Position numbers and translations under genes: made by a program. This document shows positions 3,481 to 30,914 of a DNA stretch of 51,203 nt, piece by piece (the stretch's first letter is position 1; each line of letters starts with the position of its first letter). Source of the DNA: Candidatus Micrarchaeota archaeon (GTDB lineage: Archaea; Micrarchaeota; Micrarchaeia; Anstonellales; Bilamarchaeaceae); NCBI GenBank assembly GCA_013425455.1, contig JACCLI010000077.1:1-51203 (forward strand), in the 5' to 3' direction. Below the pieces are notes generated by a model. That model saw nothing but the letters and a program-made list of their open reading frames with translations. It was not told where the DNA came from and did no database searches.

Positions 3481-4398
3481 TCACTCCGCCGCCCCAATCC
3501 AAAGGTCCAGCGCCACGCCAAGCTCCTTCGCAACCATCGAAGAAAGGGGCCTGAAATCCCCATCATCCGCGCTTTCCAGCGCATCGTAATAGGACTTGCG
3601 CACCCTCCTCCGCAGAACTATTGGTGGAAACCCTGCCCTCATCAACCTCAGGTTCGAAAGCAGCCGCGCCATCCTCCCGTTTCCGTCCACGAAGGGGTGT
3701 ATCCACGAAACAAGGTGGTGGATTTTTACCGCGGATTCAACCGCCGCGGCGCCCTGCCTCTTTGAGTTCAGCTCGGTTATGGCCTCTTTCATCAGCCCCG
3801 GGACATCCTTCCATTTCGGCGGCATGTGCCTGGACTGCGTTATGAACACCTGCTCCCTTCGATAAAACCCCGCATTCCCCGGGCTTATCCGGTCAAGGAT
3901 CGCCGCGTGCAGCGCCAAAACGTCGCATTCAGCCACCTTCGCCTTCCTGTCCGCGATTTTTCCAAGCAGATGGAGCGCCTCGCGGTGGTTGGTCGCCTCA
4001 AGGTGCTCCCTCATGCTTTTCCCCCCTATCGTTATCCCTTTCTCAAGCACCAGGTAGGTCTCCTTGAGCGAAAGCCTGTTGCCCTCTATCGCGTTTGAGT
4101 TGTAGGTCATATCCACGTCGAATTTCTTCGCAAGGCTTTCAAGCGTATTCCTGGGCAGGGGCCGCAGCCCGTTCAGTTTTTTCAGCTTCCCTTCCAGCGC
4201 GAATGCGGTCCCCTTGTCAAGCATCGCGTATTTCATCGTAGGCGGCTTCAGCCCGTGCCTTTTGCAGTGTTCCAGCATCTTTTCGCGGTTCCCCAGATAC
4301 CTGAGAACGTGCTGCCTCGCCTTGCCGCCCTCCCGCACGCTCTCCACAAGCTCGTAGTAGAATGTTGAGCCTTTCTTCCTTTCCCGCACGAATGCCAT
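3481..4398 (-). CDS. Fic family protein (AMPylase-type), class II with an internal inhibitory helix
   Basis: 305-aa ORF. The canonical Fic motif HPFVDGNGRMARLL matches HxFx(D/E)GNGRxxR. SNAIEGN upstream matches the (S/T)xxxE(G/N) inhibitory motif. The N-terminus KGSTFYYELVESVREGGKARQHVLRYLG is a segment common in Fic proteins. Confidence 0.9.
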   Translation of the reverse strand: MAFVRERKKGSTFYYELVESVREGGKARQHVLRYLGNREKMLEHCKRHGLKPPTMKYAMLDKGTAFALEGKLKKLNGLRPLPRNTLESLAKKFDVDMTYNSNAIEGNRLSLKETYLVLEKGITIGGKSMREHLEATNHREALHLLGKIADRKAKVAECDVLALHAAILDRISPGNAGFYRREQVFITQSRHMPPKWKDVPGLMKEAITELNSKRQGAAAVESAVKIHHLVSWIHPFVDGNGRMARLLSNLRLMRAGFPPIVLRRRVRKSYYDALESADDGDFRPLSSMVAKELGVALDLWIGAAE

Positions 4399-5634: not shown

Positions 5635-8600
5635 ATGCCTGCCGGAGCGCTGATGGAGCAACCTGGAACTTCTGCAGCCCATATGGTTGAGGAGACCCAG
5701 GCGATGGCCGCCGCCCTGCGCAGCCAGCTTTCCCAGAATTCCAATGCGCTTGCGGGAACTCCCTGCCCCGCCGATATTTTCAGCGGGCTGGATGGGCTCG
5801 CCGAGGAGCGCGTGCATCAGTTTGAGAGCTTCGTGCGTGGGGAATCCTTCTCGGTTTCAGGAAGCGGGATGGGCCGCGAGAACCTTGAGCGCCTTCAGGG
5901 GATTTCTGCCGCTCTTGAGCAATATGGCATAGTAGTTGAAGTGGATCCGGAAGGAGGCAGCTTCACCTTAACCAACAACAATTACATCCCGTTGAGCGTA
6001 ATAACGGAAGAAACGCGTGTTGCGCTCGCCGAGGCCAACAATTTTGCTTCAGGCTGCCTCGAGCAGGCGGATTCCCTGATTTCCCAGGGAAGGCTTGGTG
6101 AGGCAGATGCATACCTTCGGTGGGCCGGGGCAATACAGGCGAGATATTCGGAATATGTGGAGGGCGCAAGGTTCCTGGATGAATTATTTTCCGAGAAGGA
6201 CGGGCTTTCTTCGCTTCCCTCCGAAGGAATTGACGATCCGGGCCGCGCAAGGGAAAAGCTAAGCGAAATCGTAGGATATCCTATTTCCGCGCAGGATTTC
6301 CCTGCGGAATTTGAGCGCAGGATGGGAGTAAGCTGGGAAGATTTCAAGGATAGAGGGTTCGCCTCTTTGGTGGTGCGGAGCATTGACGATGCGATTGGGA
6401 AGATGCAGGAAGGGCTTTCCGCGCTGGAAACGCGGCTGCGCGAGATGTGCGCCGCATCCTCCGAAGCCATAATTGGTGCAGATATGCAGGCATACCTCCC
6501 GCCGCAGGAATATTTGGAGGATGTTTTATTTGCGAGGGATTCTGCCCTTTTTTCTACGGGCATAAAGAAGGACATACTCACAGTAACGGAAGTGAGGGAT
6601 GTAGCGGGAAAACTTAGGGATGAGCGGTTTGAGGGCGTACATGAGTCTGATCTACTTGATATGCTTGATGAAGAAAGGGACCGCATTAAGGGAATGTACG
6701 TGGAGGCGGCGAGCAATCTTGTGGAATCCATTTTACTGAAGGCTCTGATTCCGGTGGGCGAAGGGGCGGAACGCAATGCCGAGATGGAGAGCAATTACGC
6801 GCGGGCACAGGAGGCAAGGCTGAGGGGAGCAGAATTCCTCGCAAGGGGGGAAGGGATGATTCCAGGGCTGAATGCGAAGTATGCTCTTGCCTCCCGGTAT
6901 GCTGGGGTGCAGGATGCGCTGATGGCTAATGATTTTGGGAATGTCGGCACATCGGACCGCGAAGAGCTCATTACAGAGAGGAACAACCTTGTAGATGAAA
7001 TCTCACGCGCGGTAAGGGAAGGCGGCGAAGTGGAAAACCTTGAAGGCAGGATGGCTTCGCTGGACAGGAGCTACACATATATGCAAATCAGGGATTTCTG
7101 GGCGGCCTACCAGTTCGAAGGGGTCGAGGGTGTTGCTGGGAAATTTCGCCTGGAAAGGGACAGGGATGCACTGTTGGATTCCCTTGAGGCTTCACTGCAG
7201 AGCGGCAGCGAGATAGTTAACCTTGACGCGCGGCAGGGTGAGCTGCTTGCAATGCACGAGCGGTGCGCCGCATACGAGCTGCTCGTGAAAACGATTTATG
7301 CCAGCCAGAAGGAAAGGATAGAGGGCATCCAAAATCAATTTTATGAATGGAACGATTCTGTGGAGTACAACCTCAACAGAATTCCCGGGGAAGTGAGGGG
7401 GATAATAGCAACCCCTGGCTTTGAATTTGCCTCCACAGGAGACTACTGCGTTGACACCAATGCCCTTCTTGCGGATTATACCCAAACAAAAAGGCAAATC
7501 AAGAATGATATGTACGGCCTTAGGGACGAAGTGAGAATAGGGTTGGGGGCACTGCTGGGCAATCTTGATGCGTGGTATAACGAGGCGATGGGATACGCGC
7601 CGGTTGATATCGAACTCGACGATTCAGGGGACAACATCACAAATCTCCGCGAGCGCTTCTCATTTGATACGAACCCTGCGCTGGCTAGGCTCAGGGATAT
7701 CCACCAGAACACGGAAGTGGCAGCTGCACACCTCTCGGAAAGGATAGCCGTCATAAATAATCCATTTAACCAGATGGTAAATGAACTCAACAAGATAGTG
7801 GAGTCGCAGCGAACCATCGCAGCCATGTACCAGCTGGCGAGCGCGCTTGACCTGGTGAGTACCGCAACTGTTGGTATATTGGCAGTATGGAACCTCCCCA
7901 CCGTATTCGCAGCAGGCAGGAGCATAGCCAATGCGGGTCGCTCGGCGCTTGCAAGCATAGAGGCAGTATCCCCGGCTGTTGCTACGGGAATAAGGCTTGG
8001 CGCCACCGGCTTATCCCTCGGGTTGAGCGCTTATGGGGGCGTGAAATTCAGTGAAGGGGTGAGCCGGTTAAGGTCGGCAGAAACCGCAGAAGAGAAAGTG
8101 GCCGCAGCCGAACAGATGTTCGAGGGGGCGCTATGGATAGGCTCGCTGGGCTTTGCCTCGCGGCTTTCCCCCGAACTTCTCCGTACGGCGCGCGCAATGT
8201 CAGTAGGGCTGGATCTGGCTTCGATTGCGGCCATTGCCCCTTCCGTTGCCTCCCTCGGCTACGCAATGAGCGAGAGAGGGGATGTAAGCGGATGGGATGT
8301 TGCGAAAATCGCTTTCTGGACCGGCCTGGCGATTACCGGCGCATATGTCGGGATAAGGGTAGCGGGAGGCATGAGGGCGGTTGCGAGGGAAGGCGCGGAG
8401 ATTGCAGGAGAGGCGAAAATAATTTCTATAGATGAATTTGCGCGCGCAATCAGGGAGGCGCCTCCGCCACAGGGGGCCAGGGTTGCGGCAGAAGCTGCTG
8501 CGCCTCCCGCGCCTTTTGTCAGGGAAGCGGAAGCGGCTGCGCCCCCAGGTGCGGTTGTGCCGGAGAGGGTTCCAGCTCCGCGCACAACTCCCGCGGGGCC

Positions 8601-9579
8601 GGCGGCTGCAGAACGGGCTGCTCCGGAAGTTGCGGAAGCGGAGGTTTCCGCGGCCGCAGGGAGGCCCAGCATTTCACTTGTCCCGCGTCCGCAGATGATG
8701 CCGGAACCGGAGGTGGCACAGCGCCTTAGGGAACTGCTCGGCATCGAAGAAGGGCAGGCCGCAACAATGGCACGCGAAGCCACGGCTCGAGGCGTGGACA
8801 TGGCCGAGAGGTTTCAATACATCCGGGACTTTGCAGAAGGGCAAGTCCTAAGGGCACTTCGAGCCCGTTTACTACAAGAACCCGAAGTCTTATATGGAGA
8901 GAAATTCTTTAAGGTGTTTAGCGATTTAGAAAAAAGTGTTCCAGATGCGATAGTAGCCGCGCATAACAGAGCCGGAATCAGGCCACCGGAGGAAGGGGTG
9001 GCCTTAACAAGGGAGGAAATCCGCAAGCTCAGTGATTTGGGGTTGGATTACTTCAGGGACCCCACTGTCCTGCTGCGGGACCTACGAGCTATTTCTAGGG
9101 CGCAAGAGCTTCCGGCTGAGCAGAGGCTGGCCAGGTATATAGACGACTATCAGACAGCCCCCCAAGGAATAAATACTGAAATAAGCACCACCACTGCAGG
9201 GGCTGTAGAGGCACTCCAAAGAATGGGATTCGAATTTGTAAGGGAAGTGAGGGGAAATCACGACGAGTATAGGCGTGCTCTTGCAGATGGAACAATCCAA
9301 ACAGTGGAACTGACCAGAAATCGTGATTATAGTGCTAAACTGCTTAGAACTTACCTACTTGATGATATACGGCGCGGCCAGCGGGAACATTTAATCGACC
9401 AGGGAAGGGAGAGGGAAGCATTCATTAATGAATTTGCCGAAGCTTTCCGCTCGCCACGTTCTTACGAACCGCCGCCGCAGATAACGCTGGCGGAGGCACA
9501 AGAACTTGCCCGGGCAAGGGGTGAGACAAGAAGGGCTGCCGGACAAGAAGGAAGAAGAAGACGTGCTGCGGGGGAGTGA
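5635..9579 (+). CDS. Giant (1314 aa) multi-domain protein: long helical N-region, Gly/Ala-rich TM cluster, Pro/Ala linker, HicA-like C-terminal domain
   Basis: Single uninterrupted ORF. Hydrophobic Gly/Ala-rich helices at about nt 7810..8390 (e.g. VAKIAFWTGLAITGAYVGIRVAGG). A PA-rich linker at about 8450..8700. Nt 9202..9378 encode AVEALQRMGFEFVREVRGNHDEYRRALADGTIQTVELTRNRDYSAKLLRTYLLDDIRRG, which follows the HicA/YcfA pattern (L..GF..vR..GSH......g..v.v........tl..il...g). Confidence 0.8.
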   Translation: MPAGALMEQPGTSAAHMVEETQAMAAALRSQLSQNSNALAGTPCPADIFSGLDGLAEERVHQFESFVRGESFSVSGSGMGRENLERLQGISAALEQYGIVVEVDPEGGSFTLTNNNYIPLSVITEETRVALAEANNFASGCLEQADSLISQGRLGEADAYLRWAGAIQARYSEYVEGARFLDELFSEKDGLSSLPSEGIDDPGRAREKLSEIVGYPISAQDFPAEFERRMGVSWEDFKDRGFASLVVRSIDDAIGKMQEGLSALETRLREMCAASSEAIIGADMQAYLPPQEYLEDVLFARDSALFSTGIKKDILTVTEVRDVAGKLRDERFEGVHESDLLDMLDEERDRIKGMYVEAASNLVESILLKALIPVGEGAERNAEMESNYARAQEARLRGAEFLARGEGMIPGLNAKYALASRYAGVQDALMANDFGNVGTSDREELITERNNLVDEISRAVREGGEVENLEGRMASLDRSYTYMQIRDFWAAYQFEGVEGVAGKFRLERDRDALLDSLEASLQSGSEIVNLDARQGELLAMHERCAAYELLVKTIYASQKERIEGIQNQFYEWNDSVEYNLNRIPGEVRGIIATPGFEFASTGDYCVDTNALLADYTQTKRQIKNDMYGLRDEVRIGLGALLGNLDAWYNEAMGYAPVDIELDDSGDNITNLRERFSFDTNPALARLRDIHQNTEVAAAHLSERIAVINNPFNQMVNELNKIVESQRTIAAMYQLASALDLVSTATVGILAVWNLPTVFAAGRSIANAGRSALASIEAVSPAVATGIRLGATGLSLGLSAYGGVKFSEGVSRLRSAETAEEKVAAAEQMFEGALWIGSLGFASRLSPELLRTARAMSVGLDLASIAAIAPSVASLGYAMSERGDVSGWDVAKIAFWTGLAITGAYVGIRVAGGMRAVAREGAEIAGEAKIISIDEFARAIREAPPPQGARVAAEAAAPPAPFVREAEAAAPPGAVVPERVPAPRTTPAGPAAAERAAPEVAEAEVSAAAGRPSISLVPRPQMMPEPEVAQRLRELLGIEEGQAATMAREATARGVDMAERFQYIRDFAEGQVLRALRARLLQEPEVLYGEKFFKVFSDLEKSVPDAIVAAHNRAGIRPPEEGVALTREEIRKLSDLGLDYFRDPTVLLRDLRAISRAQELPAEQRLARYIDDYQTAPQGINTEISTTTAGAVEALQRMGFEFVREVRGNHDEYRRALADGTIQTVELTRNRDYSAKLLRTYLLDDIRRGQREHLIDQGREREAFINEFAEAFRSPRSYEPPPQITLAEAQELARARGETRRAAGQEGRRRRAAGE

Positions 9580-10657: not shown

Positions 10658-10691
10658 ACCATGCAATATTCCTTCTCAATATTTATAATAT
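10658..10691 (-). promoter_or_regulatory. Conserved promoter/5'UTR block, copy 2 (overlaps the gatD stop codon)
   Basis: See 5000..5034. The TATA-like ATTATAAAT is about 35 nt upstream of the ATG at 10651. Confidence 0.5.
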
Positions 10692-11951
10692 CTCACTTCT
10701 TTCCGTTATCTCGCCAGCAATATTCCCCATCATCTCTTCCTTAACTTTCTCCACTTTTTTCTCGTGCCCCAGAACCCAGCACATCTTCGCATACGCGCAC
10801 TCCGGAGTCCAGTCAGCCAGATGCCCGAACACGCCCGCCTCCTGCAGCATCCTCCCAGCGGCATACATGTCCATGTTGATTCTCCCGAAAATGCACTGGG
10901 AGGCAAATGCAACAGGTATCCCCGAATCAACCAGCGCCTTTAGGTTCGGGGTTATCTTCTTCGCCAATTTGTCCCCGAACGGGTTCGTTGGAACGTGCCC
11001 TATTCCCGTCCCCACAATCACTATCCCGTCATAATCCGACAGTTTGTCCACGAACTCCGGATGTATGCCCGGATATGTATAAACCATCGCAACGTTCTCA
11101 TTTACCCTATTGTCAAATTTCAGCTTCCCGCCCCTTTCCTTGTATTTCATATATGGCTCAATCAGGGAGGAGCGGTAATCCACCTTCGCCAGCGGAGGCA
11201 CATTAATGGACTGGAACGCATCCCTCCTGGAAGTGTGCATCTTGCGCGCCTTCGTCCCTAGATGGATGAGGCACTCCTCGTCGTCGCTCGTCGCGTGCAT
11301 GCATACTCCCACATTCGCCATGGGGCCATTCGCGGCGGCAAAACAGGCGTTCAGCATGTTTATGCGCGCATCAGTCGAGGGGCGGTCCGAGCTCCTCTGC
11401 GAGCCCACCAGATAGATTGGAACGGGCGAGTCCTGCAGCATGAAGGAAAGCGCCGCGGATGTGTAATGCATCGTATCTGTGCCGTGCAGCACCACCACGC
11501 CCTTCACACCGGCATCTATTTCCTTTTTTATTTCCGAGGCTGCCACCGACCAGTGGGCCGGCGTCATGTCTTCGGAGAGTATCGCGAAAACCTCCTTTGC
11601 ATGGAAGGTGCAGATCTTCTCCAGCCCTGGGATATTTTTTGCCAAATCCTCCGGGCTCGTTGACGGAAAAACGGCGCCTGTTTTGTATTCCACCTTGGAT
11701 GAAACCGTGCCCCCGGTCCCTATGATTGCGACGTCCCCCCGTCCTGCTTTCTGGGCATGCTTACCGCTTCCGGCATCTTGTTTTATCTCCACCTCGCCCA
11801 GCTCCTCCACCTTCGCCCCTTCCTTCCTTATGCCCACATTGTAGCCGGAATCCAATTTGAGCACGAGGAATTCCTTTTTCGGGGAAGGAAGCAGGAGCCC
11901 CTCGTATTTCCTCCCTTTCGTTGTTATGCGGACGCGCTTCAGTTTTTCCAT
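10683..11951 (-). CDS. gatD: Glu-tRNA(Gln) amidotransferase subunit D (GatD)
   Basis: 422-aa ORF. N-terminal GatD-specific domain (RVRITTKGRKYEGLLLP) plus an asparaginase-like core (GTGGTVSS, HGTDTM). Confidence 0.95.
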   Translation of the reverse strand: MEKLKRVRITTKGRKYEGLLLPSPKKEFLVLKLDSGYNVGIRKEGAKVEELGEVEIKQDAGSGKHAQKAGRGDVAIIGTGGTVSSKVEYKTGAVFPSTSPEDLAKNIPGLEKICTFHAKEVFAILSEDMTPAHWSVAASEIKKEIDAGVKGVVVLHGTDTMHYTSAALSFMLQDSPVPIYLVGSQRSSDRPSTDARINMLNACFAAANGPMANVGVCMHATSDDEECLIHLGTKARKMHTSRRDAFQSINVPPLAKVDYRSSLIEPYMKYKERGGKLKFDNRVNENVAMVYTYPGIHPEFVDKLSDYDGIVIVGTGIGHVPTNPFGDKLAKKITPNLKALVDSGIPVAFASQCIFGRINMDMYAAGRMLQEAGVFGHLADWTPECAYAKMCWVLGHEKKVEKVKEEMMGNIAGEITERSEIL

Positions 11952-19166: not shown

Positions 19167-19431
19167 GTGATGGGCTAGGCGGGGGCCAGGGGTCCCCATT
19201 CCGCAAATCCCCTTTAGGCGGGCTGAACGCCCGGGGCGTGATTCGCCCGTTTTGCGTCTTTCATCTAAAGCGTCGAAGCCCTCCCTTCTGGGACAGGGGC
19301 TTTATGCGAACCGGGTCAGGCCGGAAGGAGCAGCCCTAAGCGTAGTGCCCCGTGCTCAGGAGCAAGGGGGTGGAGCTGATGGTGAAAGCTCCGCATGGCG
19401 GACGCTTCGCAATCCGGGAAGCCCATCACTC
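19167..19431 (+). ncRNA. Signal recognition particle RNA (archaeal 7S/SRP RNA)
   Basis: The 5' GATGGGCTAGGCGGGGG pairs with the 3' AGCCCATC. The conserved helix-8 region is ACCGGGTCAGGCCGGAAGGAGCAGCCCTAAG. It ends before a T5 run. Ends are estimated by eye (plus or minus 5 nt). Confidence 0.8.
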
Positions 19432-21458: not shown

Positions 21459-21971
21459 ATGGTCCGCCTGAGTGAGGAATTGAAGACAATCCTTAAAAAA
21501 CCCCTTGGGAAAACCGGGCCGCTCGGGCAGCTCCTTCCGCTCACAAAGGGAAAGAGAATAATCGCTGTAGGGGACCAGGTGGTCTTCGCCCTCCTCTCGC
21601 ACGGGATAAGGCCGCACGTTGCGGTATTCGACTTCAAGACGCTGAGGAACCCTGTTGACATTGCGGTGAGGGAAAGGCTGGAGAAGGAATATCCGGACGC
21701 CAACAGAGTCCATAACCCGGCGGGAGAAATCACCAAGGGGCTGGCCCTTATCGCGCCTATCCTCATGAGGGACGGCGGCGCCCTTCTGGTGGAGGGCGAG
21801 GAGGACCTTGCCGCGCTGGTTTTCATAGACATAATGAAAAAAGGCTACGTGGTATTGTACGGCCAGCCCGGGGAAGGGGCCGTGCTTGTTGAAGAAAACG
21901 GCGAGGGGAAGAAATTAGTTAAAAAGATTGCAGGGAAGCTGAAATTAGCTTCCCTTGCCGACAGATTTTAG
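21459..21971 (+). CDS. DUF359 protein / archaeal GTP-dependent dephospho-CoA kinase candidate
   Basis: AVGDQVVFALLSHGIRPHVAVFDFKT.R, HNPAGEIT and VEGEEDLAALVFI...VLYGQPGEGAV match the DUF359 signature. Confidence 0.7.
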   Translation: MVRLSEELKTILKKPLGKTGPLGQLLPLTKGKRIIAVGDQVVFALLSHGIRPHVAVFDFKTLRNPVDIAVRERLEKEYPDANRVHNPAGEITKGLALIAPILMRDGGALLVEGEEDLAALVFIDIMKKGYVVLYGQPGEGAVLVEENGEGKKLVKKIAGKLKLASLADRF

Positions 21972-22127
21972 CAGAACGAACAGCAGCACTATGCTGATGA
22001 TGGTGACCGCTGCCACATTTGTCCAATCGTTCATTCCGAGCGGCGGGTTTATGTGCCAGAAGTAGCCTACGCCTGAGCCTACGACTATTGCTACAATCGC
22101 CCGCACGGCATCCATGAAGTCGCCCAT
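21945..22127 (-). CDS. Small 2-TM membrane protein, hypothetical
   Basis: 60-aa ORF with two hydrophobic helices. It lies directly downstream of the PRC-barrel gene on the same strand, and its 3' end overlaps the convergent DUF359 gene by 27 nt. Confidence 0.4.
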   Translation of the reverse strand: MGDFMDAVRAIVAIVVGSGVGYFWHINPPLGMNDWTNVAAVTIISIVLLFVLLKSVGKGS

Positions 22128-22137
22128 CGGGCTTCAC

Positions 22138-22371
22138 CTAAGCCCTGGCCCTTGCGACTACCATGACATCTTCGACGGATTTCACGTTCTTGTAGAGCAC
22201 GCTCTTTTCCTTAAGGATTTCCTTTCCCTTCGAGGAGGAGAAGGTCTCGAGGAGTACCCTTGCGACCTCGCCCGCTTCCATGTCCACAACAAAATCCTGC
22301 GCCGTGCCGACGTATTTGCCGCCATCGGTGAAGATTTCCATCCCGTACAGCTTCGACAGCTTAACACTCAT
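22138..22371 (-). CDS. PRC-barrel domain protein
   Basis: LYGMEIFTDGGKYVGTAQDFVVDMEAGEVARVLL is the PRC-barrel core pattern. Confidence 0.7.
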   Translation of the reverse strand: MSVKLSKLYGMEIFTDGGKYVGTAQDFVVDMEAGEVARVLLETFSSSKGKEILKEKSVLYKNVKSVEDVMVVARARA

Positions 22372-22428
22372 TGTTTCACCTTGCGCTCTAGTTACAAAGG
22401 TAAGAATTTATAAAAACATCGCCCGGGT

Positions 22429-23532
22429 TCAGATGTTTGTTTTGTGGAAGAAGAAAAGCTCCTGCGCCTCCCTGCTTCCCGGCTCTATGCCGAGGGCCTC
22501 GTAAACCCCGCAGATCCCCATCTTCCCAAGCGGGCACTTGCCGGGCTTCCTGTCCGCAGCCTTCCTCAGCCCGGCTGCCCGCGCCCTGTATTTTTCCTCG
22601 CTCGCAGGCAGCGGCTGTCCCGGCCCGCCCACGCACCCGTAAGGGCAGTTCATCACTTCAACGAAATGGTATTTCACCCCGTGCTTTATCTCGTCAAGGA
22701 CCTTGTCCAGGTTTGTTACCCCATATATGGAAACAACATTCAGCCGGTGCCTCCCTATCTGCACGCACAGGTGCTTCACCTGTTCGTCGCCCCTGAACCT
22801 GACCTTCTCAGGGCTCTCCCCGCACACGCACGCGAGCGTGCTCAAAAGCGCTTCCGTGATTCCTCCGGTCGCCCCGAATATGACTCCGTCCTTTGAGCTG
22901 TCCGGCAGGAGTTCCGTAAACTTACCCTCCTTCACTTTATTCATGTCCAGCCCCTTTTTCTTCGCCCAAATCCCGAGCTCGTGCGTTGTCAGCACATAAT
23001 CTATGTATCTTATCCCGGAGGGAAGCCTCTCGCGCGTCTCGTATTTCTTGAGCACGCACGGCATCACGCTCACCATGCAGATTTTTTCTATCGGAACCCC
23101 GAGTTTTTTCGCGAGTATGTGCTTCCCCAGGCTTCCGGCAACCATGTGCGGAGAGCCGATTGGGGAAACCAGATGGTAAAGTTCCGGGTGCTTGTTCTTG
23201 CAGTACAGCCTCCAGCCGATGCAGCAGGAGTTGAACACCGGGAAATATTTCTCATCCCCGCGCTCGAGCGCGTGCAGCACCTCCAAAGTCTCTTCATAAA
23301 TATTCACATCCGCCCCAAGGGGCGTGTCCATTACGTGGTCGAACCCGAGCGCATGCAGCAATCCGACCGTCTGGTAGGTAAGGTCCTCGCCAGGAGCGCG
23401 CCCGAACTCCTCGCCGATGGAAACGCGCACCGCGGGAGCGATCTGCACGACCATCACCTTTCCGTCTTTCTTCTCCTTCTCCAGCGCAGCAAAAAGCTCG
23501 TCCGGCTTGTTGAGGTAGATTTCATCTTCCAT
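22429..23532 (-). CDS. [FeFe]-hydrogenase H-cluster domain protein, minimal form (367 aa, no ferredoxin-like N-terminal domains)
   Basis: VVQIAPAVRVSIGEEFG. Signature 1 is NSCCIGW (canonical TSCCPxW). Signature 2 is VMPCVLKKYE (MPCxxKxxE). Signature 3 is EVMNCPYGCVGGPGQP (ExMxCxxGCxxGxGQP). Confidence 0.85.
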   Translation of the reverse strand: MEDEIYLNKPDELFAALEKEKKDGKVMVVQIAPAVRVSIGEEFGRAPGEDLTYQTVGLLHALGFDHVMDTPLGADVNIYEETLEVLHALERGDEKYFPVFNSCCIGWRLYCKNKHPELYHLVSPIGSPHMVAGSLGKHILAKKLGVPIEKICMVSVMPCVLKKYETRERLPSGIRYIDYVLTTHELGIWAKKKGLDMNKVKEGKFTELLPDSSKDGVIFGATGGITEALLSTLACVCGESPEKVRFRGDEQVKHLCVQIGRHRLNVVSIYGVTNLDKVLDEIKHGVKYHFVEVMNCPYGCVGGPGQPLPASEEKYRARAAGLRKAADRKPGKCPLGKMGICGVYEALGIEPGSREAQELFFFHKTNI

Positions 23533-23583
23533 ACGCTTCGCGTTTCCCGCATAACTAATATAATGTTTTGTTTCGGGTTTTGT

Positions 23584-23601
23584 ATGTAACCATGGTTACA
23601 T
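23584..23601. promoter_or_regulatory. Perfect 18-bp palindrome ATGTAACCATGGTTACAT in the hydrogenase/giant-gene divergent region
   Basis: Read directly from the sequence. It is flanked by the inverted 8-mers cgcgtttc (about 23538) and gaaacgcg (about 23637). Confidence 0.4.
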
Positions 23602-23685: not shown

Positions 23686-26600
23686 ATGGGAAATGCTGGT
23701 AGAACGTGTGCAGTGACACTCTTATCCCTACTTCTCCTCATGCCCCTCGCGTTCTCCCTGTCCGCGACCGCCTGCGCCTCTTGCGGCCTGACCGAGATAT
23801 ATGCCGGCTTCACTCCTGAGGACGCCAGCATGAATGTCGTGCTCACCTCTGACTCCGTGGATTACAGCCAGGTGCGCGACCCTGAGCAGCTGCGCCAGCA
23901 GTACCTGGAGTTCCTTGAAGAAAATTACAACATAGATATCCCCTCCTCCGAGCGGACCGTAACGATCGGGCCGGTCCCAGACGCCAGCATATTCTTCTAC
24001 TACGAAACCTACTCCGTGGACTCAGCCACAGGCAAGCTTGTCTCCACCCGGGCCCAGCTCGAATGCGGCGGAGTCGCCGGCCCGGTCAAGACCGACTCCA
24101 ACGGGGTCGCGAAATGCAAGCTTGATCCCTCCATTTTCACCGGCAAGTGCACCCGCGTCTACATACAGTTCCAGGGCACGCCTTCCCTCAATCCCGCCAC
24201 TTCTTCGGTGCAGGTATGCGATTCCGAGAGCGACGCCTTCTCAGCCATGGCGTCCGCGCTTTCCGGCATAAGCCAGGCCTCCGTGGGCCAGCCGCTCTGC
24301 ATAGTCGCCTTCCTCATACTGGGCCTGTTCATCGCCTCCATGTTCTTCAGCGGCAGGAGCCCGCTCGCCCTCCTGGACATAACCACCCCCCTCCTGCCCA
24401 AGCCGAAGGCCATCTCGTACAGCGGAATGTCCTTCGGGACCGGATATATTCGGATGAGGCGGGAATTGGCGAGCAGGATAAACATATCCTCTAGCATACT
24501 CAAGAGCCAGGCCGCCTTCCTCAAGGCAGACCTGCTCCGCAAGGGCACTAGCCTCAGGGACATAAACGAGATACTCACGCTTGCCAAGGGGAGGCCCCAC
24601 ATAGCCTACCTGGCGCTCCGCGCTTTGAAGGAGGGGAAGACCATGCAGGAGGCTAAGGCGATCGCCGGCCTAAACCCGGGCTTTGGCAAGGGCCAGAAGG
24701 AGGAGGAGTTCGCGGAGGCCCGCAAATGGATAAAACTTCTCCAGAAAGGCGAGAAGGACAAGGCCCTGGACATGCTGACGGACAGGTTCACTGCAGAGAT
24801 GCTTGACAAGGAGGTCGGGCGCATAACCGGCAACGTGCCCGGCAAGCTCGCGAACACCCTGAAGACCGTCCTTGACCACAAATACTCCCCGCTCAAGTAC
24901 ATGATGCCCGAGACCATACGCGAGCAGATAAGGGTCGGCCTGGGCTCAGCATTTTTCGGCGGCCGCAGCGTTGTAGGCGTGACTAAGGTGGCGGCGAAGG
25001 GGCTGGTCCGCGCCGGAGCCGCCGGCCTCACAGCGCTCACAGGCAAGCAGTACAACATCCTCCCATACACCGAGGAGGAGAAAAAGGCGCGCCAGTTCTT
25101 TCTCATGGACATCCGCTCACGCATAGAGCAGTTCTACAAGGTGCAGATGCAGGAGGCGAAGGCCAACGTGGCCATGTACGTCACAAAAAGGCTTCTTGAG
25201 TCCAAGGGCGTCAAGTTTGACCTGAGCGAGAAGGAGCTCCTCGGCCTCGGAAAGATAGAGATCCTTGAGAAGATGAACCTCAAGAACAACCCCAAGGCGG
25301 CCCAGCTCGCCGCGGAGATAAGCAGGATACTGCAGTCCACCGACAAAATTGATGAAAAGATAAGGCTTCTCCGGGCCCTTGCGGATTCCAGCGGCGCCAG
25401 CTATGACAAGGCCGGAGTAAACAGCTTCCTCAACAAGCTTGCGTCTATAGACTCGTCCGGCTCCTACCGCACGAAGCTCCAGAGCCTCCATGACTATCTC
25501 GAAAACAAGTACGAGGTCCACAAGCTGAACTCGGACTTCCGCGGTACCGGGGACAATTTCTACCCGTGGGTCGGGAGGCACAGCTTCCGCTATGTTGTGG
25601 AGGGCGGAACAAAATACGACGACACCTGGAAATTCATGTTCCTCAGGAGCTTTGTCGAGCAGAACGAAAAGGGCCAGAAGGGCATCTCCCTGGGCGACAC
25701 GGCGAAAGTCCTCTGGCTGCGCCTCGTGAACGAGATGTGGGGCCTCTTCCCCTCGGACATGAAGGGCCTCCCGACCGAGCAGCGCCTGATGATGAAGCAG
25801 GCCGAGGAATACCTCCTGAGCCTCCTCTCAGAAAAGGGAAAGGAGATACTGAAGAACGGACTTGTCCTCCCTTCCAAATTCGACGAGAATGGCAATATAA
25901 TCCAGGAAGGCAAGCCAATAAAGATGACCAGCCCGCTCGAGCTCCTCTACAACCCGACAATCGCAAAATCCGGCCTTTTTGTGGGCCAGGAGCTGGCCCG
26001 CGAGATGGGCGCGGACGCCGCCCACTGGAATGTGGACATGCGCGGCTACTGGCGCACCCTGGTCCCGGGCTCCTCCGTCCTTGATTTCGACAACATAGGA
26101 AAGACATCCGTGATGGAGCAGGCATTCGGCGCCGCCTACCGCTCCCACATCGGGCGCAACGTAAGCCCCGAGGTCTTCATGAAGGAGCAGGCGCGGGAAA
26201 TGTTCTACAACCGCATCGTGAGCATGATAGGCTCCAAGTATCCGGACGCCTACCAAACCGGCAGGCAGGAATTCCGCTTCCTGGCCTCCACCTACGGCGC
26301 GTTCAAGGAAAGGTACGCGGAGATATTCGGCCTCACCCCGGAGCGGAAGAAGGACGCCAGCTGGGTGACGGACGACATGGTCGCGGAAATGGTCAAGAAG
26401 GGCGTCAACATAAACGATCTCCACAAATTCGTGTGGATACGCACCAGGGAGGGCAACTACGTCCCGTTCACCGAGGGAAGGGAAGGCTTCGGCATGAGGG
26501 TGAGCGACGGCGAGAGGATAATCAACGGCAAGTTCGTGTACAACGCCGGCAGCCACTGGGAGAGCTTCAACAGCACAAAGCTCCGTGAGAAATACGGAAG

Positions 26601-28587
26601 GCTCCTGGACCTTCCAGCAGAGAAGGGCGGCTTGCTTTCCGCCTCCCTGTTCAAGGAAATGAAGGAAATTGACAACCTTGTGAGGGCCTCCCAGCAGTCC
26701 ACGGAGGGGATGTTCAAGAAGAGGGAGCTCGACCCGAAGCTCAAGGAGCGCATGGTGAATTTTTCTAACGACGTGATAACCTGGGGCGGAAAGACCAGGA
26801 GGGACGCCGCCGCATACATCGTCTTCGACCTTTGCAAGAGGGTGAACGACTTCTCCATAGTGGAAAACAGCAAGTTCCTCTCCATACAGGCAACCAAGGA
26901 CGTCGGGTCAGTCGGCTTCAGGAAATTCCAGGAAAAGGTCTGGCTTCCGTTCGCAAAGGGCGCGGAGTCCCTCATGATATCCTCCTTCCTTCCCCAGCTC
27001 AACGAGCTCCAAAACGTGACGATGCTCTCGGAGCACCTGCGCGCCCGCACCGCTGAATACTCGGCGCGCTATGCAATGAGCCTCGCGGACCCGACATACC
27101 CGGACAAGTCCATCAACAGGGAGCTCCACAGCCAGATGATTGATCTCATGGACTCGATGAACCGCTACCGCTCGGTATGGGACAGCACAATCACCAGGGA
27201 CCCGCGCGGCAACTCATCCTCGTTCGGCCCCCAGCTCAATTTCGCTTCGTTCTACCACCACGGCCCCGCGCGCCCCTTCGCCCCGGTCACAACCCTCGGC
27301 GAGTTCAGCGGGCGCACCCTCAGGCAGTCCCTTGAGTCCCTCCGCATGATGCCGCTGACCATCAACTGGCTAATCGGGGAGCCGTTCGCCCTCATGGTGA
27401 GGGGTGCGATGACTTCCATGTACGGCTACCCAGGCAAGCACGACAAGACCTACCACCCGCTCCATCCCTACGCGATGACATCCGGCAGGCCCACGGACGC
27501 ACTCCGCTCTCTCTTCGACCCGTTCCATGCTGCCCTTGATTTCTCGTCCGGCACGTTCAGGAAGACTGCCGCCATGGGCCTTTCCATGTTCCACACGGCG
27601 GCAAGCCCGCTCACCCACTCCCTCGACTATGTTTCCGGAAAGATGGGCGAGTCCAGCATCCCGGGCATGGGGATGGCCTCAAGGGCCCTGGGCTGGGTCT
27701 CCGATGTCTTCAAGCCGGAAACCACGATGCATGCCAACCCGGAATTCTACCTCCCCAGCTACATCCAGAAGAGCAGGGTGCGCGAGCTGCTCGGCGGCGA
27801 CATGACCATGCGGGAGTACGGGGGGAAGGCGATGGCGGACGGCATAGTCAGGACGCACGAGGACCACACCTGGATGTACAAGAACATAAACGTCATCTGG
27901 AACGTCAACACCAACCCGGGGATATCATACATTGATTTCTACTACAACATGCATGCTGACCCGCGCCTCGCGTCCCACCTCGTGTCCGGCTCCCGCTACT
28001 CCTCCTTCTTCTCCCAGGACAACTACCTGCAGCAGCAGGCCAACCTTGGGATAGTGAAGAGGGATGTCTCGGCGTACGAGCTCGCGGAAGTGAGGGAGAG
28101 CGAGATGCGCCAATACATGAGCCCAAGGGAGAACCGCATGTGGGGCCTGCTCAACCCTATCTCCTTCCTGTACAACAACCCTATATTCCCGCTCTCCATC
28201 GCCTCATGGGACTTCATTACCCACCGTTCCTGGGAGAAGTTCAAGGACATCAAATCCTCCTGGTCCAAGAGGAGTGAGTACGCCCAGACCGGGGGCAGCC
28301 AGCAGTTCATGTCAGGAGTGCCCATCGGCCCGCTCTCGCAGACAAACTACGAGACGTTCCAGAGCCGCGAGATCCACCCCAGCGAGATAGAGAACGTGGC
28401 CGAGCGCTGGATAAGGAAGACCGGCCATTTCTTCTCCTCGGCGTTCACCTACAATACATATGCATACTGCCAGGTCTGCGGCTCCCCAATGCCAAGGGGC
28501 GGCACCTGCGGCGTCTGCTCGGGCAAATCCATTTTATTGCTTTGGAGCAAAAGGAAGTGGGCAAGGCCTCCGGGTGCTTCACCATGA
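23686..28587 (+). CDS. Giant (1633 aa) membrane-anchored protein: signal peptide, ~165-aa Cys-containing ectodomain, one TM helix, ~1400-aa uncharacterised region, C-terminal zinc ribbon
   Basis: Single ORF. N-terminus MGNAGRTCAVTLLSLLLLMPLAFSLSATA. TM helix QPLCIVAFLILGLFIASMFFSG. C-terminus YCQVCGSPMPRGGTCGVCSG (CxxC-x8-CxxC). No other domain recognised by eye. Confidence 0.8.
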   Translation: MGNAGRTCAVTLLSLLLLMPLAFSLSATACASCGLTEIYAGFTPEDASMNVVLTSDSVDYSQVRDPEQLRQQYLEFLEENYNIDIPSSERTVTIGPVPDASIFFYYETYSVDSATGKLVSTRAQLECGGVAGPVKTDSNGVAKCKLDPSIFTGKCTRVYIQFQGTPSLNPATSSVQVCDSESDAFSAMASALSGISQASVGQPLCIVAFLILGLFIASMFFSGRSPLALLDITTPLLPKPKAISYSGMSFGTGYIRMRRELASRINISSSILKSQAAFLKADLLRKGTSLRDINEILTLAKGRPHIAYLALRALKEGKTMQEAKAIAGLNPGFGKGQKEEEFAEARKWIKLLQKGEKDKALDMLTDRFTAEMLDKEVGRITGNVPGKLANTLKTVLDHKYSPLKYMMPETIREQIRVGLGSAFFGGRSVVGVTKVAAKGLVRAGAAGLTALTGKQYNILPYTEEEKKARQFFLMDIRSRIEQFYKVQMQEAKANVAMYVTKRLLESKGVKFDLSEKELLGLGKIEILEKMNLKNNPKAAQLAAEISRILQSTDKIDEKIRLLRALADSSGASYDKAGVNSFLNKLASIDSSGSYRTKLQSLHDYLENKYEVHKLNSDFRGTGDNFYPWVGRHSFRYVVEGGTKYDDTWKFMFLRSFVEQNEKGQKGISLGDTAKVLWLRLVNEMWGLFPSDMKGLPTEQRLMMKQAEEYLLSLLSEKGKEILKNGLVLPSKFDENGNIIQEGKPIKMTSPLELLYNPTIAKSGLFVGQELAREMGADAAHWNVDMRGYWRTLVPGSSVLDFDNIGKTSVMEQAFGAAYRSHIGRNVSPEVFMKEQAREMFYNRIVSMIGSKYPDAYQTGRQEFRFLASTYGAFKERYAEIFGLTPERKKDASWVTDDMVAEMVKKGVNINDLHKFVWIRTREGNYVPFTEGREGFGMRVSDGERIINGKFVYNAGSHWESFNSTKLREKYGRLLDLPAEKGGLLSASLFKEMKEIDNLVRASQQSTEGMFKKRELDPKLKERMVNFSNDVITWGGKTRRDAAAYIVFDLCKRVNDFSIVENSKFLSIQATKDVGSVGFRKFQEKVWLPFAKGAESLMISSFLPQLNELQNVTMLSEHLRARTAEYSARYAMSLADPTYPDKSINRELHSQMIDLMDSMNRYRSVWDSTITRDPRGNSSSFGPQLNFASFYHHGPARPFAPVTTLGEFSGRTLRQSLESLRMMPLTINWLIGEPFALMVRGAMTSMYGYPGKHDKTYHPLHPYAMTSGRPTDALRSLFDPFHAALDFSSGTFRKTAAMGLSMFHTAASPLTHSLDYVSGKMGESSIPGMGMASRALGWVSDVFKPETTMHANPEFYLPSYIQKSRVRELLGGDMTMREYGGKAMADGIVRTHEDHTWMYKNINVIWNVNTNPGISYIDFYYNMHADPRLASHLVSGSRYSSFFSQDNYLQQQANLGIVKRDVSAYELAEVRESEMRQYMSPRENRMWGLLNPISFLYNNPIFPLSIASWDFITHRSWEKFKDIKSSWSKRSEYAQTGGSQQFMSGVPIGPLSQTNYETFQSREIHPSEIENVAERWIRKTGHFFSSAFTYNTYAYCQVCGSPMPRGGTCGVCSGKSILLLWSKRKWARPPGASP

Positions 28588-30914
28588 AACCAAGAATCCC
28601 ATTTTTGCTCCTGCTCCTCACGCTCCTGATGTTCGGCTGCATCGACCCGCAGTATTACGAGCGCTCAACCGCGGGCGAGGGCGCGGTGCTCGACATGTCC
28701 CTCGCGAACGCCTGCCCGACAGGGGACTGCATGTGCATGGCCTGCGACGCGCACGGGATGGCCGACCCGGTGTATGCGAAATTCTACACCTTCTCCTATT
28801 ACTACGAGGAGTGCAAGTTCACGAAATGCAACGAGACGGACTTCAACACATACATGAACGCGGAGCCCAACAATGAAAAGATGAACTTTTTCATGATAGG
28901 GCAGGGAGGCTTTGGCGAATTCAACAAGGCCAACCCCTACTGCAACAATTCCCTGCGCATGCCGGTCAAATGGCTGGACAGCCGCTATGGCGCCGGAGAA
29001 TACCCGCTCCCGGACGCCAGGCGCGCGGGCTGCTTCCTAGACAAGGGGTCCATCCCCCTCTACATCCTCTACAGCCGCGGCCAAGCGGCCAGCCCCTCCC
29101 GCGCAGAGGAGATCGCCCACCTTTTTTCCGGGACCATCCTTGGCGACATGGGCCCGATAATCATCACCGCGGAGTTTGAGTTCAACTCCTCCAACCCCGC
29201 AATCCGCGAGAACGTCTCGGCCCAGGTGAAGGCCATGAAGCGCGCCTGCCCGGACTGCCTGATAGCTCTCGCCCCGCGCATATGGGACAACTCCACTGAA
29301 TTGGAAGAGATGTTCCAGGACCAGGCATTCAACAATTCCGTGGACCTTTTCGCCTTTGGGATAAATTCCCATGACTTTAACACCTGCGACCCGACCCGCA
29401 TATATTCGGACGCGGTCCAGTATTCCGAATATCTCCTTTACAAATACAAAAAGCCGTCCGTGTGGGCGTACATCCTTTTCGACAACGACTGGAGCGCGGA
29501 CCAGAGCTGCCACTGGGACGAGTCCCTCCTTTCCAGGGCTTACACGGATTTCTACACGTACCAGCCCGCCTTCCCGTCCACCGGGGTCATCGGCGCGTCC
29601 CTCTATTCAATGTACGGAATAGGCTCCCTCAACTGCACGGACTGCGGCCTTTTCAACATCTCCGGGGACCCCATCGCCTCCAGGCAGGCCTCCTGGTTCT
29701 CCAACTGCCAGGGGCTATTCGCAACATCCAGCGTCCTTCCCATCGTTTTCAGCAACGCCCCGGGCACAACGTGCGCCTTCGGCCAGTCTGCATACAGCTA
29801 CACCGGGGATTCCAGCTTCTACACGGAGCAGCCCGTCCCCACGGAGCCTGCCGGCGCCTGGCCCCAGTTCTACAGCTGCGACTCCTGCATGGTCGAGGTC
29901 AGGCCGGCCTCGATAATGATTTCCCCGAACACGGCATTCAGCGACAGGGCATGCACAGACTTCCCTGTCCTTGACGTATACTCAGACATCCGGGACATAG
30001 ACCCCGCGTACGTGCGCGCCCTTGTCTGGTGGGAAAGCGGAGGCTTCGACGACTGCGAAGTCGGCACCTCAGGCGCACCATGCGGCCGCGTAACGCCCAT
30101 GTATGAGGTTATTGATCCCGACGGACGCTGCCCGGCATACGCGACCCCGTCCTACCAGCGCCCGTCCAAGCATGCCTGCGACATGGGGCTCATCCCGGTC
30201 TTCTCGCCCCCAGAGGACTATTGGGCCGGAATCACCTTCAAGGACTGGATGTATGCCCCGGAAGGAGAGCTTGCAATCGCAAAAGCATGCGCCGGGGATG
30301 AGAAGTTCAACCCCTTCAACGTTGAGCACAACGTCTGCCTTGGCACCTACGAGGTCGCCCAGCACATAAAAACTGCCGAAGGCATTGTCGCATCGAACGA
30401 GGGCCGCCTCGGCCTCACGGCAATAAAGAACGAATACGGCGAGGAGGAATACGAAAACGCAAAAGGCCTCGTTACCCTTTTCATCGCCCGCACGCAGTTC
30501 ATAGCCCCGGAGGTCTGGTCCACCTATGGAAACAAATGGATGAACGATTTTACCAAATATTCAAATTATGACGACCATTTCTGCAGCGGAACTTCTGACC
30601 ACCAGTGCTGCGACAGCGGCCATGTCAGGTATGACCTGAGGAACTGCTGCGGAAGCTCCGATTTCATAAGTTTCGTGACCGACGACACCTGCTGGACGCT
30701 CACGGGCACCAATGTGGAAGAAAAATACAGGGACCCGATCATGAACGCAAAGAAAATAATGGCTCTTTATCTGGGCGTGCGCGAGAAATGCGGAATCTGC
30801 GACGGAGAAAAGTGGAGGGAAAACGTTGAGGAATGGGCGTCCCGGACACCCGAGGGCCCGCGCCCGGCGGTCCCTTCCGTAACAGTTGTTCCGGCTACCT
30901 CCATAATCCCCTAA
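28584..30914 (+). CDS. Cys-rich lipoprotein-like secreted protein (776 aa) with a possible SLT/lysozyme-like domain
   Basis: ATG at 28584 overlaps the upstream stop (ATGA). MKPRIPFLLLLLTLLMFGC is a lipobox-like signal. VRALVWWESGGFDD ... ACDMGLIPV ... FNPFNVEHNVCLGTYEVAQHI resembles SLT motifs ES..F / GLMQ / NI..G..YL. The N-half shows alternating beta/alpha blocks (IPLYILYS, GPIIITAEFEFN, CLIALAPR, VDLFAFGINSH, SVWAYILFD). Confidence 0.75.
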   Translation: MKPRIPFLLLLLTLLMFGCIDPQYYERSTAGEGAVLDMSLANACPTGDCMCMACDAHGMADPVYAKFYTFSYYYEECKFTKCNETDFNTYMNAEPNNEKMNFFMIGQGGFGEFNKANPYCNNSLRMPVKWLDSRYGAGEYPLPDARRAGCFLDKGSIPLYILYSRGQAASPSRAEEIAHLFSGTILGDMGPIIITAEFEFNSSNPAIRENVSAQVKAMKRACPDCLIALAPRIWDNSTELEEMFQDQAFNNSVDLFAFGINSHDFNTCDPTRIYSDAVQYSEYLLYKYKKPSVWAYILFDNDWSADQSCHWDESLLSRAYTDFYTYQPAFPSTGVIGASLYSMYGIGSLNCTDCGLFNISGDPIASRQASWFSNCQGLFATSSVLPIVFSNAPGTTCAFGQSAYSYTGDSSFYTEQPVPTEPAGAWPQFYSCDSCMVEVRPASIMISPNTAFSDRACTDFPVLDVYSDIRDIDPAYVRALVWWESGGFDDCEVGTSGAPCGRVTPMYEVIDPDGRCPAYATPSYQRPSKHACDMGLIPVFSPPEDYWAGITFKDWMYAPEGELAIAKACAGDEKFNPFNVEHNVCLGTYEVAQHIKTAEGIVASNEGRLGLTAIKNEYGEEEYENAKGLVTLFIARTQFIAPEVWSTYGNKWMNDFTKYSNYDDHFCSGTSDHQCCDSGHVRYDLRNCCGSSDFISFVTDDTCWTLTGTNVEEKYRDPIMNAKKIMALYLGVREKCGICDGEKWRENVEEWASRTPEGPRPAVPSVTVVPATSIIP

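Follow-up and report, generated by a model that had tools for sequence, protein, structure and literature searches.

Does a DPANN archaeon carry a working [FeFe]-hydrogenase that consists of the catalytic domain and nothing else, and what would such an enzyme do? The question is raised by hydA, a gene on contig JACCLI010000077.1 (assembly GCA_013425455.1) of a Candidatus Micrarchaeota archaeon, of which a stretch of 51,203 nucleotides (positions 1 to 51,203, forward strand), here called the window, was analysed.

22429..23532, minus strand: hydA, encoding an H-domain-only (M1-type) [FeFe]-hydrogenase of 367 aa (open reading frame, PF02906, PDB matches, AlphaFold2 model, dN/dS)

HydA was interpreted as a monomeric H-domain-only (M1-type) [FeFe]-hydrogenase of Micrarchaeota that would belong to the archaeal minimal group A1 and would produce H2 with electrons fed by ferredoxin, a reading given a probability of about 0.82. 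The host is a tiny, symbiotic DPANN archaeon of the Micrarchaeota. An archaeal context had been proposed from the sequence, and it was confirmed by an archaeal signal recognition particle (SRP) RNA at 19168-19428 (+), with a score of 98.8 bits against an Rfam gathering score of 96.5, together with the archaeal marker genes GatD/GatE, Topo VI A/B, aEF-1alpha, CDC48, DUF530 and DUF2070. The GC content around hydA is 0.55, as elsewhere in the window, which gives no hint of recent transfer or mis-assembly; a Logan contig of run ERR4334728 encodes the identical HydA protein. The hydA locus is syntenic with those of relatives on contigs of an NCBI metagenome-assembled genome (MAG) and of Logan, JGI and ENA, the common gene order being TopoVI-A, DUF530, giant open reading frames (ORFs), hydA, PRC, a 60-aa ORF, DUF359, MFS and RpiA. 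The relatives of 84% and 76% identity keep the gene order of the window, one on an NCBI MAG contig and the other on Logan and JGI contigs. Syntenic loci encode the homologues P0003 (GCA_975961585.1) and P0007, the NCBI record of the latter naming Ca. Bilamarchaeaceae, a family placed in Micrarchaeia/Anstonellales within the DPANN kingdom Nanobdellati (NCBI taxonomy).

The hydA product looks like a functional [FeFe]-hydrogenase, as judged from what was directly observed of its sequence, fold, residue conservation, purifying selection and archaeal host. The ORF starts with ATG, the most upstream start of the frame, and the N-terminus MEDEIYLNKPDELF is common to the product and its homologues. 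The family profile PF02906 (Fe_hyd_lg_C) covers residues 25-304 over its entire length (profile 1-245 of 245, E = 1.3e-65), and the score of 221.9 bits against a cutoff of 22.1 is far beyond chance. The Pfam scan of HydA found no domain besides PF02906, and no PAS, HAMP, phosphatase or other signalling domain was present; likewise, HydA has no N-terminal Cys motif, no CxxCxxCxxxC or 2Fe-2S motifs, no accessory Fe-S domains and no Nar1-type N-terminal Cys cluster. The description of a 367-aa protein limited to the H-domain and devoid of F-cluster domains, given in an earlier sequence-only reading, therefore stands. The same reading had called the enzyme minimal, a term that applies to the missing F-domain and not to a trimmed H-domain: HydA has the size of the CpI H-domain (CpI 209-574, 366 aa) and aligns to it with few gaps, so that it is minimal through loss of the F-domain only. 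Its C-terminal 60 residues align with the small-subunit-like tail of CpI and DdH. When HydA was searched against PDB sequences, 43 [FeFe]-hydrogenase sequences were matched, the best being 8a6t_A (HydA1 of Thermoanaerobacter kivui HydABC, E = 1e-66, 39% identity), followed by DdH, CpI and CrHydA1 (E = 1e-59 to 1e-48).

The AlphaFold2 model of HydA, built from the clade alignment, reached a mean pLDDT of 92.9 and a pTM of 0.92, and its top Foldseek matches in the PDB were all [FeFe]-hydrogenases. Query-normalised template modelling (TM) scores of 0.86-0.90, with root-mean-square deviations (rmsd) of about 2.1-2.5 Å, were obtained against TkHydA1, DdH, CpI and CbA5H (entries 8a6t, 9gbu, 4xdc and 1feh), and the values for TkHydA1 (8a6t) were 0.89 and 2.1 Å. 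As modelled, the protein as a whole makes up one full H-domain, down to the small-subunit-like tail at the C-terminus. The dN/dS ratio of hydA was 0.073 against the relative of 93% identity (dS 0.60) and 0.064 against that of 84%, values taken from close pairs only, as dS is saturated against the relatives of 61-62%; a ratio of about 0.07 indicates that hydA is under strong purifying selection.

For the active site, the sequences of CpI (209-574) and CrHydA1 were verified letter for letter against the PDB entries and aligned with HydA and 120 homologues, and invariance was judged on an alignment of 54 clade members whose divergence extends down to 36% identity. The three H-cluster signatures and the proton-path helix were located as follows, on the evidence of this alignment to CpI and CrHydA1.

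Residues 101-107, 23212..23232, minus strand: L1 motif, N-S-C-C-I-G-W
Residues 156-165, 23038..23067, minus strand: L2 motif, V-M-P-C-V-L-K-K-Y-E
Residues 292-307, 22612..22659, minus strand: L3 motif, EVMNCPYGCVGGPGQP
23281..23295, minus strand: proton-path helix E80-E81-T-L-E84 (CpI E278, E279 and E282)

The individual residues correspond to those of CpI as listed below.

HydA C103 (CpI C299): proton-transfer Cys
HydA C104 (CpI C300): [4Fe-4S]H ligand
HydA C159 (CpI C355): [4Fe-4S]H ligand
HydA C296 (CpI C499): [4Fe-4S]H ligand
HydA C300 (CpI C503): [4Fe-4S]H ligand bridging to [2Fe]H
HydA K162 (CpI K358): second sphere
HydA E165 (CpI E361): second sphere
HydA M157 (CpI M353): second sphere
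HydA M294 (CpI M497): second sphere
HydA A32/P33 (CpI A230/P231): second sphere
HydA F219 (CpI F417): second sphere
HydA R247 (CpI R449): second sphere
HydA P128 (CpI P324): second sphere
HydA E81 (CpI E279): inner proton path
HydA S123 (CpI S319), 23164-23166: inner proton path
HydA E84 (CpI E282): inner proton path

The signatures had been described in slightly divergent form and were found in that form, with the four H-cluster cysteines, the proton-transfer Cys C103 and the Lys K162 all kept. The listed residues are invariant in the 54 clade members, with the exception of E81 (at least 90%), E84, S123 and R247. Within the motifs, the invariant positions are S102, C103, C104, G106 and W107 in L1, M157, P158, C159, K162 and E165 in L2, and E292, M294, C296, G299, C300, G302, G303 and Q306 in L3, where P304 is found in at least 90% of the members. 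An extra metal site at the C-terminal cysteines C333 and C341 was ruled out, since this pair is not kept even in the relatives of 84% and 80%.

[FeFe]-hydrogenases have been described in nine archaeal phyla by Greening et al. (Cell 2024, PMC11216029), who distinguished an archaeal group A1, with a mean of 363 residues (n = 26; Iainarchaeota, Micrarchaeota and Nanoarchaeota), from an ultraminimal group E with a mean length of 286 residues. The small DPANN versions mentioned in the sequence-only reading match those of this study, HydA fitting group A1 rather than group E. As far as can be read from sequence, HydA fits the archaeal minimal group A1 by host, length, architecture and residue pattern. 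In comparison with the members Mu (Micrarchaeota UBA95) and Ia (Ca. Iainarchaeum andersonii), the phylum Micrarchaeota is shared with Mu, the proteins are H-domain only and without accessory clusters, the length of 367 aa is close to the class mean, all H-cluster cysteines are present, the proton-transfer residues differ and no maturases are encoded nearby; the hydA locus lacks the HydC-like, hyd6TM or 2-oxoacid:ferredoxin oxidoreductase (OFOR) neighbours reported for some members. Mu, once matured with [2Fe]adt, produced H2 at half the rate of CrHydA1 in lysates (PMC11216029), and H-cluster binding and H2 production, established in the literature for this clade member, would apply to HydA by analogy.

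The NCBIfam ranking also placed HydA with group A, the models of this group coming first (A6 NF040763, 279 bits; TIGR02512, 262 bits) and group B1 following with 108 bits. In a large protein search, about 100 clusters (at 90% identity) of H-domain-only proteins of 343-394 aa were found, of which the named members come from Micrarchaeota, Bilamarchaeaceae, Anstonellales, Iainarchaeota or Parvarchaeota, while the next-best matches beyond this clade were bacterial multidomain group A enzymes of 570-580 aa with about 39% identity. The 102 short archaeal sequences were monophyletic in 60 of 60 neighbour-joining bootstraps against CpI, CrHydA1 and 17 bacterial group A sequences, a tree whose limited outgroups all come from group A. 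As to the placement that had been suggested against other hydrogenase groups and Nar1-like proteins, the profiles and best matches favour catalytic group A. A scan of genome contigs with the clade pattern APAVR..GE returned at least two Micrarchaeota loci among the matches listed, where the UBA95 locus of Mu did not appear; bacterial hydrogenases also match this pattern.

Among characterised enzymes, CrHydA1 of Chlamydomonas reinhardtii (M1-type; PDB 3lx4 and 2n0s) is likewise H-domain only and takes its electrons directly from ferredoxin. Its five Cys, K, E and two Met recur in HydA, as does its inner proton pathway, and both enzymes share A and T at CpI positions 232 and 268, respectively. 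HydA was expected to be smaller than algal HydA, and it is 74 residues shorter than mature CrHydA1, lacking an algal insertion of some 45 residues as well as the N-terminal extension. CrHydA1 retains TSCCPGW, GGGGQP, R286, S320 and H569, whereas HydA has N101, I105, P304, A88, P124 and F361; algae encode the maturases HydEF and HydG, whereas none are encoded in the hydA window. The bacterial multidomain group A enzymes (TkHydA1 8a6t, NF040763 A6 and CpI) are the closest relatives in sequence and fold and have the same catalytic residue set, but the bacterial HydA proteins have an N-terminal part of about 200 residues that holds 3-4 accessory Fe-S clusters, as well as partner subunits, none of which are found in HydA. 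The group E enzyme Fm of Ca. Forterrea multitransposorum (PMC11216029) is also a DPANN protein, monomeric, H-domain only and without maturases; however, group E has condensed loops and about 286 aa and is sister to the sensory group C, in contrast to HydA, which has a full-size H-domain and scores best with group A.

From these likenesses we infer an electron donor, a physiological direction and a route of in vivo maturation for HydA. One [4Fe-4S] cluster would be bound by C104, C159, C296 and C300, with C300 bridging to the [2Fe]H subcluster. Because HydA has no relay clusters, the [4Fe-4S]H side would be exposed and a soluble low-potential donor would deliver electrons to it directly, as in algal HydA1. 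This donor would most likely be ferredoxin reduced by an OFOR encoded elsewhere in the genome; OFOR genes often adjoin hydA in Micrarchaeota MAGs (PMC11216029). Protons are predicted to pass through E84, S123, E81 and C103 to the bridge amine of the azadithiolate, from an entrance different from that of CpI. Release of H2 would re-oxidise ferredoxin in fermentation and so dispose of reductant, in line with the ferredoxin-coupled fermentative role proposed for archaeal group A1 (PMC11216029). Maturation in vivo may depend on HydEFG, encoded elsewhere in the genome, or follow another route; complete HydEFG was reported in only 5 of 130 hydrogenase-encoding archaeal genomes, and an alternative maturation route was proposed by the authors (PMC11216029).

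Several points weigh against the interpretation of HydA as an active, ferredoxin-fed group A1 enzyme. The scores of HydA are below the curated NCBIfam cutoffs (TIGR02512, 262 vs 406 bits; NF040763, 279 vs 765 bits), because only the C-terminal H-domain part of these full-length models is present. The likeness to Mu and Ia is drawn from their published description and not from sequence identity. The absence of hydE, hydF and hydG from the window, already remarked upon in the sequence-only reading, was confirmed: scanning 40 ORFs of the 51-kb window against Pfam revealed no HydE, HydF, HydG, radical-SAM protein or HydF-like GTPase, and no ferredoxin, OFOR or NuoE/F-like genes, and a scan of all window ORFs of at least 40 aa for the Cys motifs of ferredoxin, radical-SAM and 2Fe-2S proteins matched only an antisense ORF inside hydA. 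Maturation and electron donor are therefore without support from the local context. In addition, L1 and L3 are non-canonical (T297N, P301I and G507P in CpI numbering), with NSCCIGW and GCVGGPGQP in place of TSCCPxW and GCxxGGGQP. These three variants are clade-wide, the clade signatures being N-S-C-C-[I/V]-G-W and G-G-P-G-Q-P, whereas the bacterial matches retain TSCCP[G/A]W and GGGGQP. The full set of differences from CpI comprises T297N, P301I, Q325H, G507P, R286A, S320P, H565Q and H569F, and four of these (R286A, S320P, H565Q and H569F) make the outer proton path depart from that of highly active group A enzymes.

Approximately 23267-23269, minus strand: proton-entrance residue A88 (CpI R286), from the alignment
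23161-23163, minus strand: proton-entrance residue P124 (CpI S320), from the alignment
22462-22464, minus strand: proton-entrance residue Q357 (CpI H565), from the C-terminal sequence alignment
22450-22452, minus strand: proton-entrance residue F361 (CpI H569), from the C-terminal sequence alignment

S320, H569 and E278 form the SHE proton-entry motif, which is required for high turnover according to a 2026 preprint (10.64898/2026.09.22.753672) in which archaeal enzymes are not discussed, and of the three only E278 is retained in HydA (as E80). On that account, the activity of HydA may be lower or its proton entry different; the R286A variant of CpI kept 30-90% of its activity (PMC6226526). 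At position 569, most of 101 clade members carry Y (56) or F (8), and 9 have H.

A basal subgroup of short archaeal hydrogenases (L013, P0092, P0097, P0098 and P0102-P0104) retains the bacterial-like T297 and H569, and, in all but P0092, R286 and Q325 as well. I301 is already present in all of them, and P507 in all but P0092. The subgroup looks transitional, with bacterial group A on one side and the Micrarchaeota core clade on the other.

Sensory hydrogenases of groups C/D and Nar1/NARF-like proteins are marked by signalling domains, by loss of C299 and of the residues in contact with [2Fe]H, or by the N-terminal Nar1 Cys cluster, and in enzymes of groups C/D a different residue stands in place of C299 and protons take a different pathway. 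In HydA, PF02906 is the sole domain, and C103, K162, M157 and M294 are retained. The alternative that survives best, improbable as it is, holds that HydA is apo-like or binds only [4Fe-4S] and has lost hydrogenase activity in vivo, as a protein similar to Nar1 and the cytosolic iron-sulfur assembly (CIA) proteins or as a relic in an organism without HydEFG. The window without maturase genes, the scarcity of full HydEFG sets among hydrogenase-encoding archaeal genomes (PMC11216029) and the divergent L1 and L3 motifs are in keeping with it, but residues that serve only [2Fe]H contact or catalysis (C299, K358, E361, M353, M497 and A230/P231 in CpI numbering) are invariant down to 36% identity, with E279 at no less than 90%. 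The low dN/dS, the missing Nar1-type Cys cluster and the activity of a clade member once given [2Fe]adt (PMC11216029) also argue against a non-catalytic protein.

Slightly less credit was given to the view that HydA serves as catalytic subunit in a multisubunit complex, such as a bifurcating one of the HydABC type, with partners encoded elsewhere. The closest bacterial relatives are indeed HydA subunits of bifurcating or NADH-dependent enzymes (TkHydA1, 8a6t_A, 39%; A6, 279 bits), and a HydC-like gene adjoins hydA in the UBA95 cluster (PMC11216029); nevertheless, the F-clusters and 2Fe-2S domains that wire HydA to HydB/HydC are missing, no NuoE/NuoF-like genes were found by the Pfam scans of the window, no HydA-HydC complex was predicted for group A1 in the modelling of PMC11216029, and gene neighbourhoods vary among clade members. 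Least probable of all, a sensory or regulatory hydrogenase (group C/D-like) of low turnover rather than a metabolic enzyme would agree with the remodelled proton-path entrance (R286A, S320P and H569F), which could lower turnover, and with a conserved operator-like palindrome nearby, but HydA has no signalling domain, keeps its Cys for proton transfer along with E279, S319 and E282 of the inner pathway (for the pathway of groups C/D, compare PMC10407848) and finds its best profile and structure matches among prototypical group A enzymes, and the CpI variant R286A is still active, as noted above (PMC6226526). An H2-producing enzyme of archaeal group A1 is thus the reading preferred here.

The upstream region of hydA holds two signals.

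23556..23564, minus strand: TATA-like box ATTATATTA, with its centre some 28 nt ahead of the hydA ATG, read from the sequence
23584..23601, either strand: perfect 18-bp palindrome ATGTAACCATGGTTACAT, 52-69 nt ahead of the hydA ATG

The TTATA core of the box is aligned in relatives, and the spacing of about 28 nt between box and ATG suggests that the hydA transcript is leaderless or has a very short leader. The palindrome ATGTAACCATGGTTACAT occurs once in the window at up to 3 mismatches, against 0.04 occurrences expected, and keeps its place ahead of hydA in the relatives L091 (93%), L002 (84% amino acid identity) and L003/L004 (76%), whereas the gene on its far side differs in L002 and L003. 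It is a candidate hydA operator for a dimeric transcription factor, and its conservation suggests that hydA expression is regulated by such a factor.

A more far-reaching reading that joins these features is tentative and rather doubtful. The lineage would make an active H-cluster without HydE, HydF and HydG, through a new archaeal route or with a [2Fe] precursor taken from a host; catalysis would run via a re-wired proton entrance (A88, P124 and F361) and a non-canonical L1 (P301I) fixed across the clade; and expression would be under the control of a factor binding ATGTAACCATGGTTACAT.

On the other side of hydA lie a PRC-barrel protein and a tiny membrane protein, both named as neighbours in the sequence-only reading and both located.

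22138-22371, minus strand: PRC-barrel protein of 77 aa (PF05239; PDB matches 8qzo_A, E = 8e-10, and 8onw, both PRC-barrel)
22407-22414: TATA-like box TTTATAAA of the PRC-barrel gene
21945-22127, minus strand: hydrophobic protein of 60 aa with two hydrophobic segments and no Pfam match

A functional linkage of hydA with these two genes was considered and rejected, as the three genes are found together only in relatives with 76% identity or more. Both neighbours are absent beside hydA in the relatives of 62%, 58% and 47%; in the first of these, the 77-aa gene after hydA is unrelated to the PRC-barrel gene (no BLASTP alignment), and the other two have other neighbours. The PRC-barrel and 60-aa membrane proteins are probably unrelated to hydA and incidental, because they stand near it only in close relatives, and because the PRC-barrel protein resembles stand-alone archaeal structures and its gene has a TATA-like box of its own. 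The structures 8qzo and 8onw are presumably archaeal CdpB-type cell-division proteins.

Divergent from hydA, two consecutive giant ORFs without Pfam match were observed at 23686-28587 (+), encoding 1633 aa, and at 28542-30914 (+), encoding 790 aa. The larger product has a signal-peptide-like N-terminal segment and a CxxC...CxxC pair at its C-terminus, and both ORFs are conserved in position and size (1641/772 aa in L002 and 1630/763 aa in L003). These may be DPANN surface or host-interaction proteins. Elsewhere in the window, GatE (1593-3428) and GatD (10683-11951) are encoded about 7 kb apart, and the gap holds an ORF of 1314 aa without Pfam match at 5635-9579 (+). A Fic/DOC-domain protein of 305 aa is encoded at 3481-4398 (-), between gatE and unannotated ORFs. 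The SRP RNA spans 261 nt against a model of 317 positions and appears shortened relative to the consensus.

Enzymes of the class to which HydA belongs were already reported, with demonstrated activity, in 2024, and HydA is a further member of this class. The most important question around the clade is how the H-cluster is matured in archaea without HydEFG, and it is not answered by the window. The locus adds a full-length, well-supported member of the archaeal minimal [FeFe]-hydrogenases with 51 kb of context, and the clade is much larger than first reported, with about 100 clusters at 90% identity compared with 26 sequences. Only three points extend the published record, namely the motif variants found throughout the clade, a proton entrance that lacks S320, H569 and R286, and the conserved palindrome ahead of hydA. 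Enzymologists concerned with how the scaffold tunes H-cluster activity, and designers of small H2 catalysts, could find the clade-wide substitutions of interest: P301I, T297N and G507P, along with R286, S320 and H569 lost from the proton entrance.

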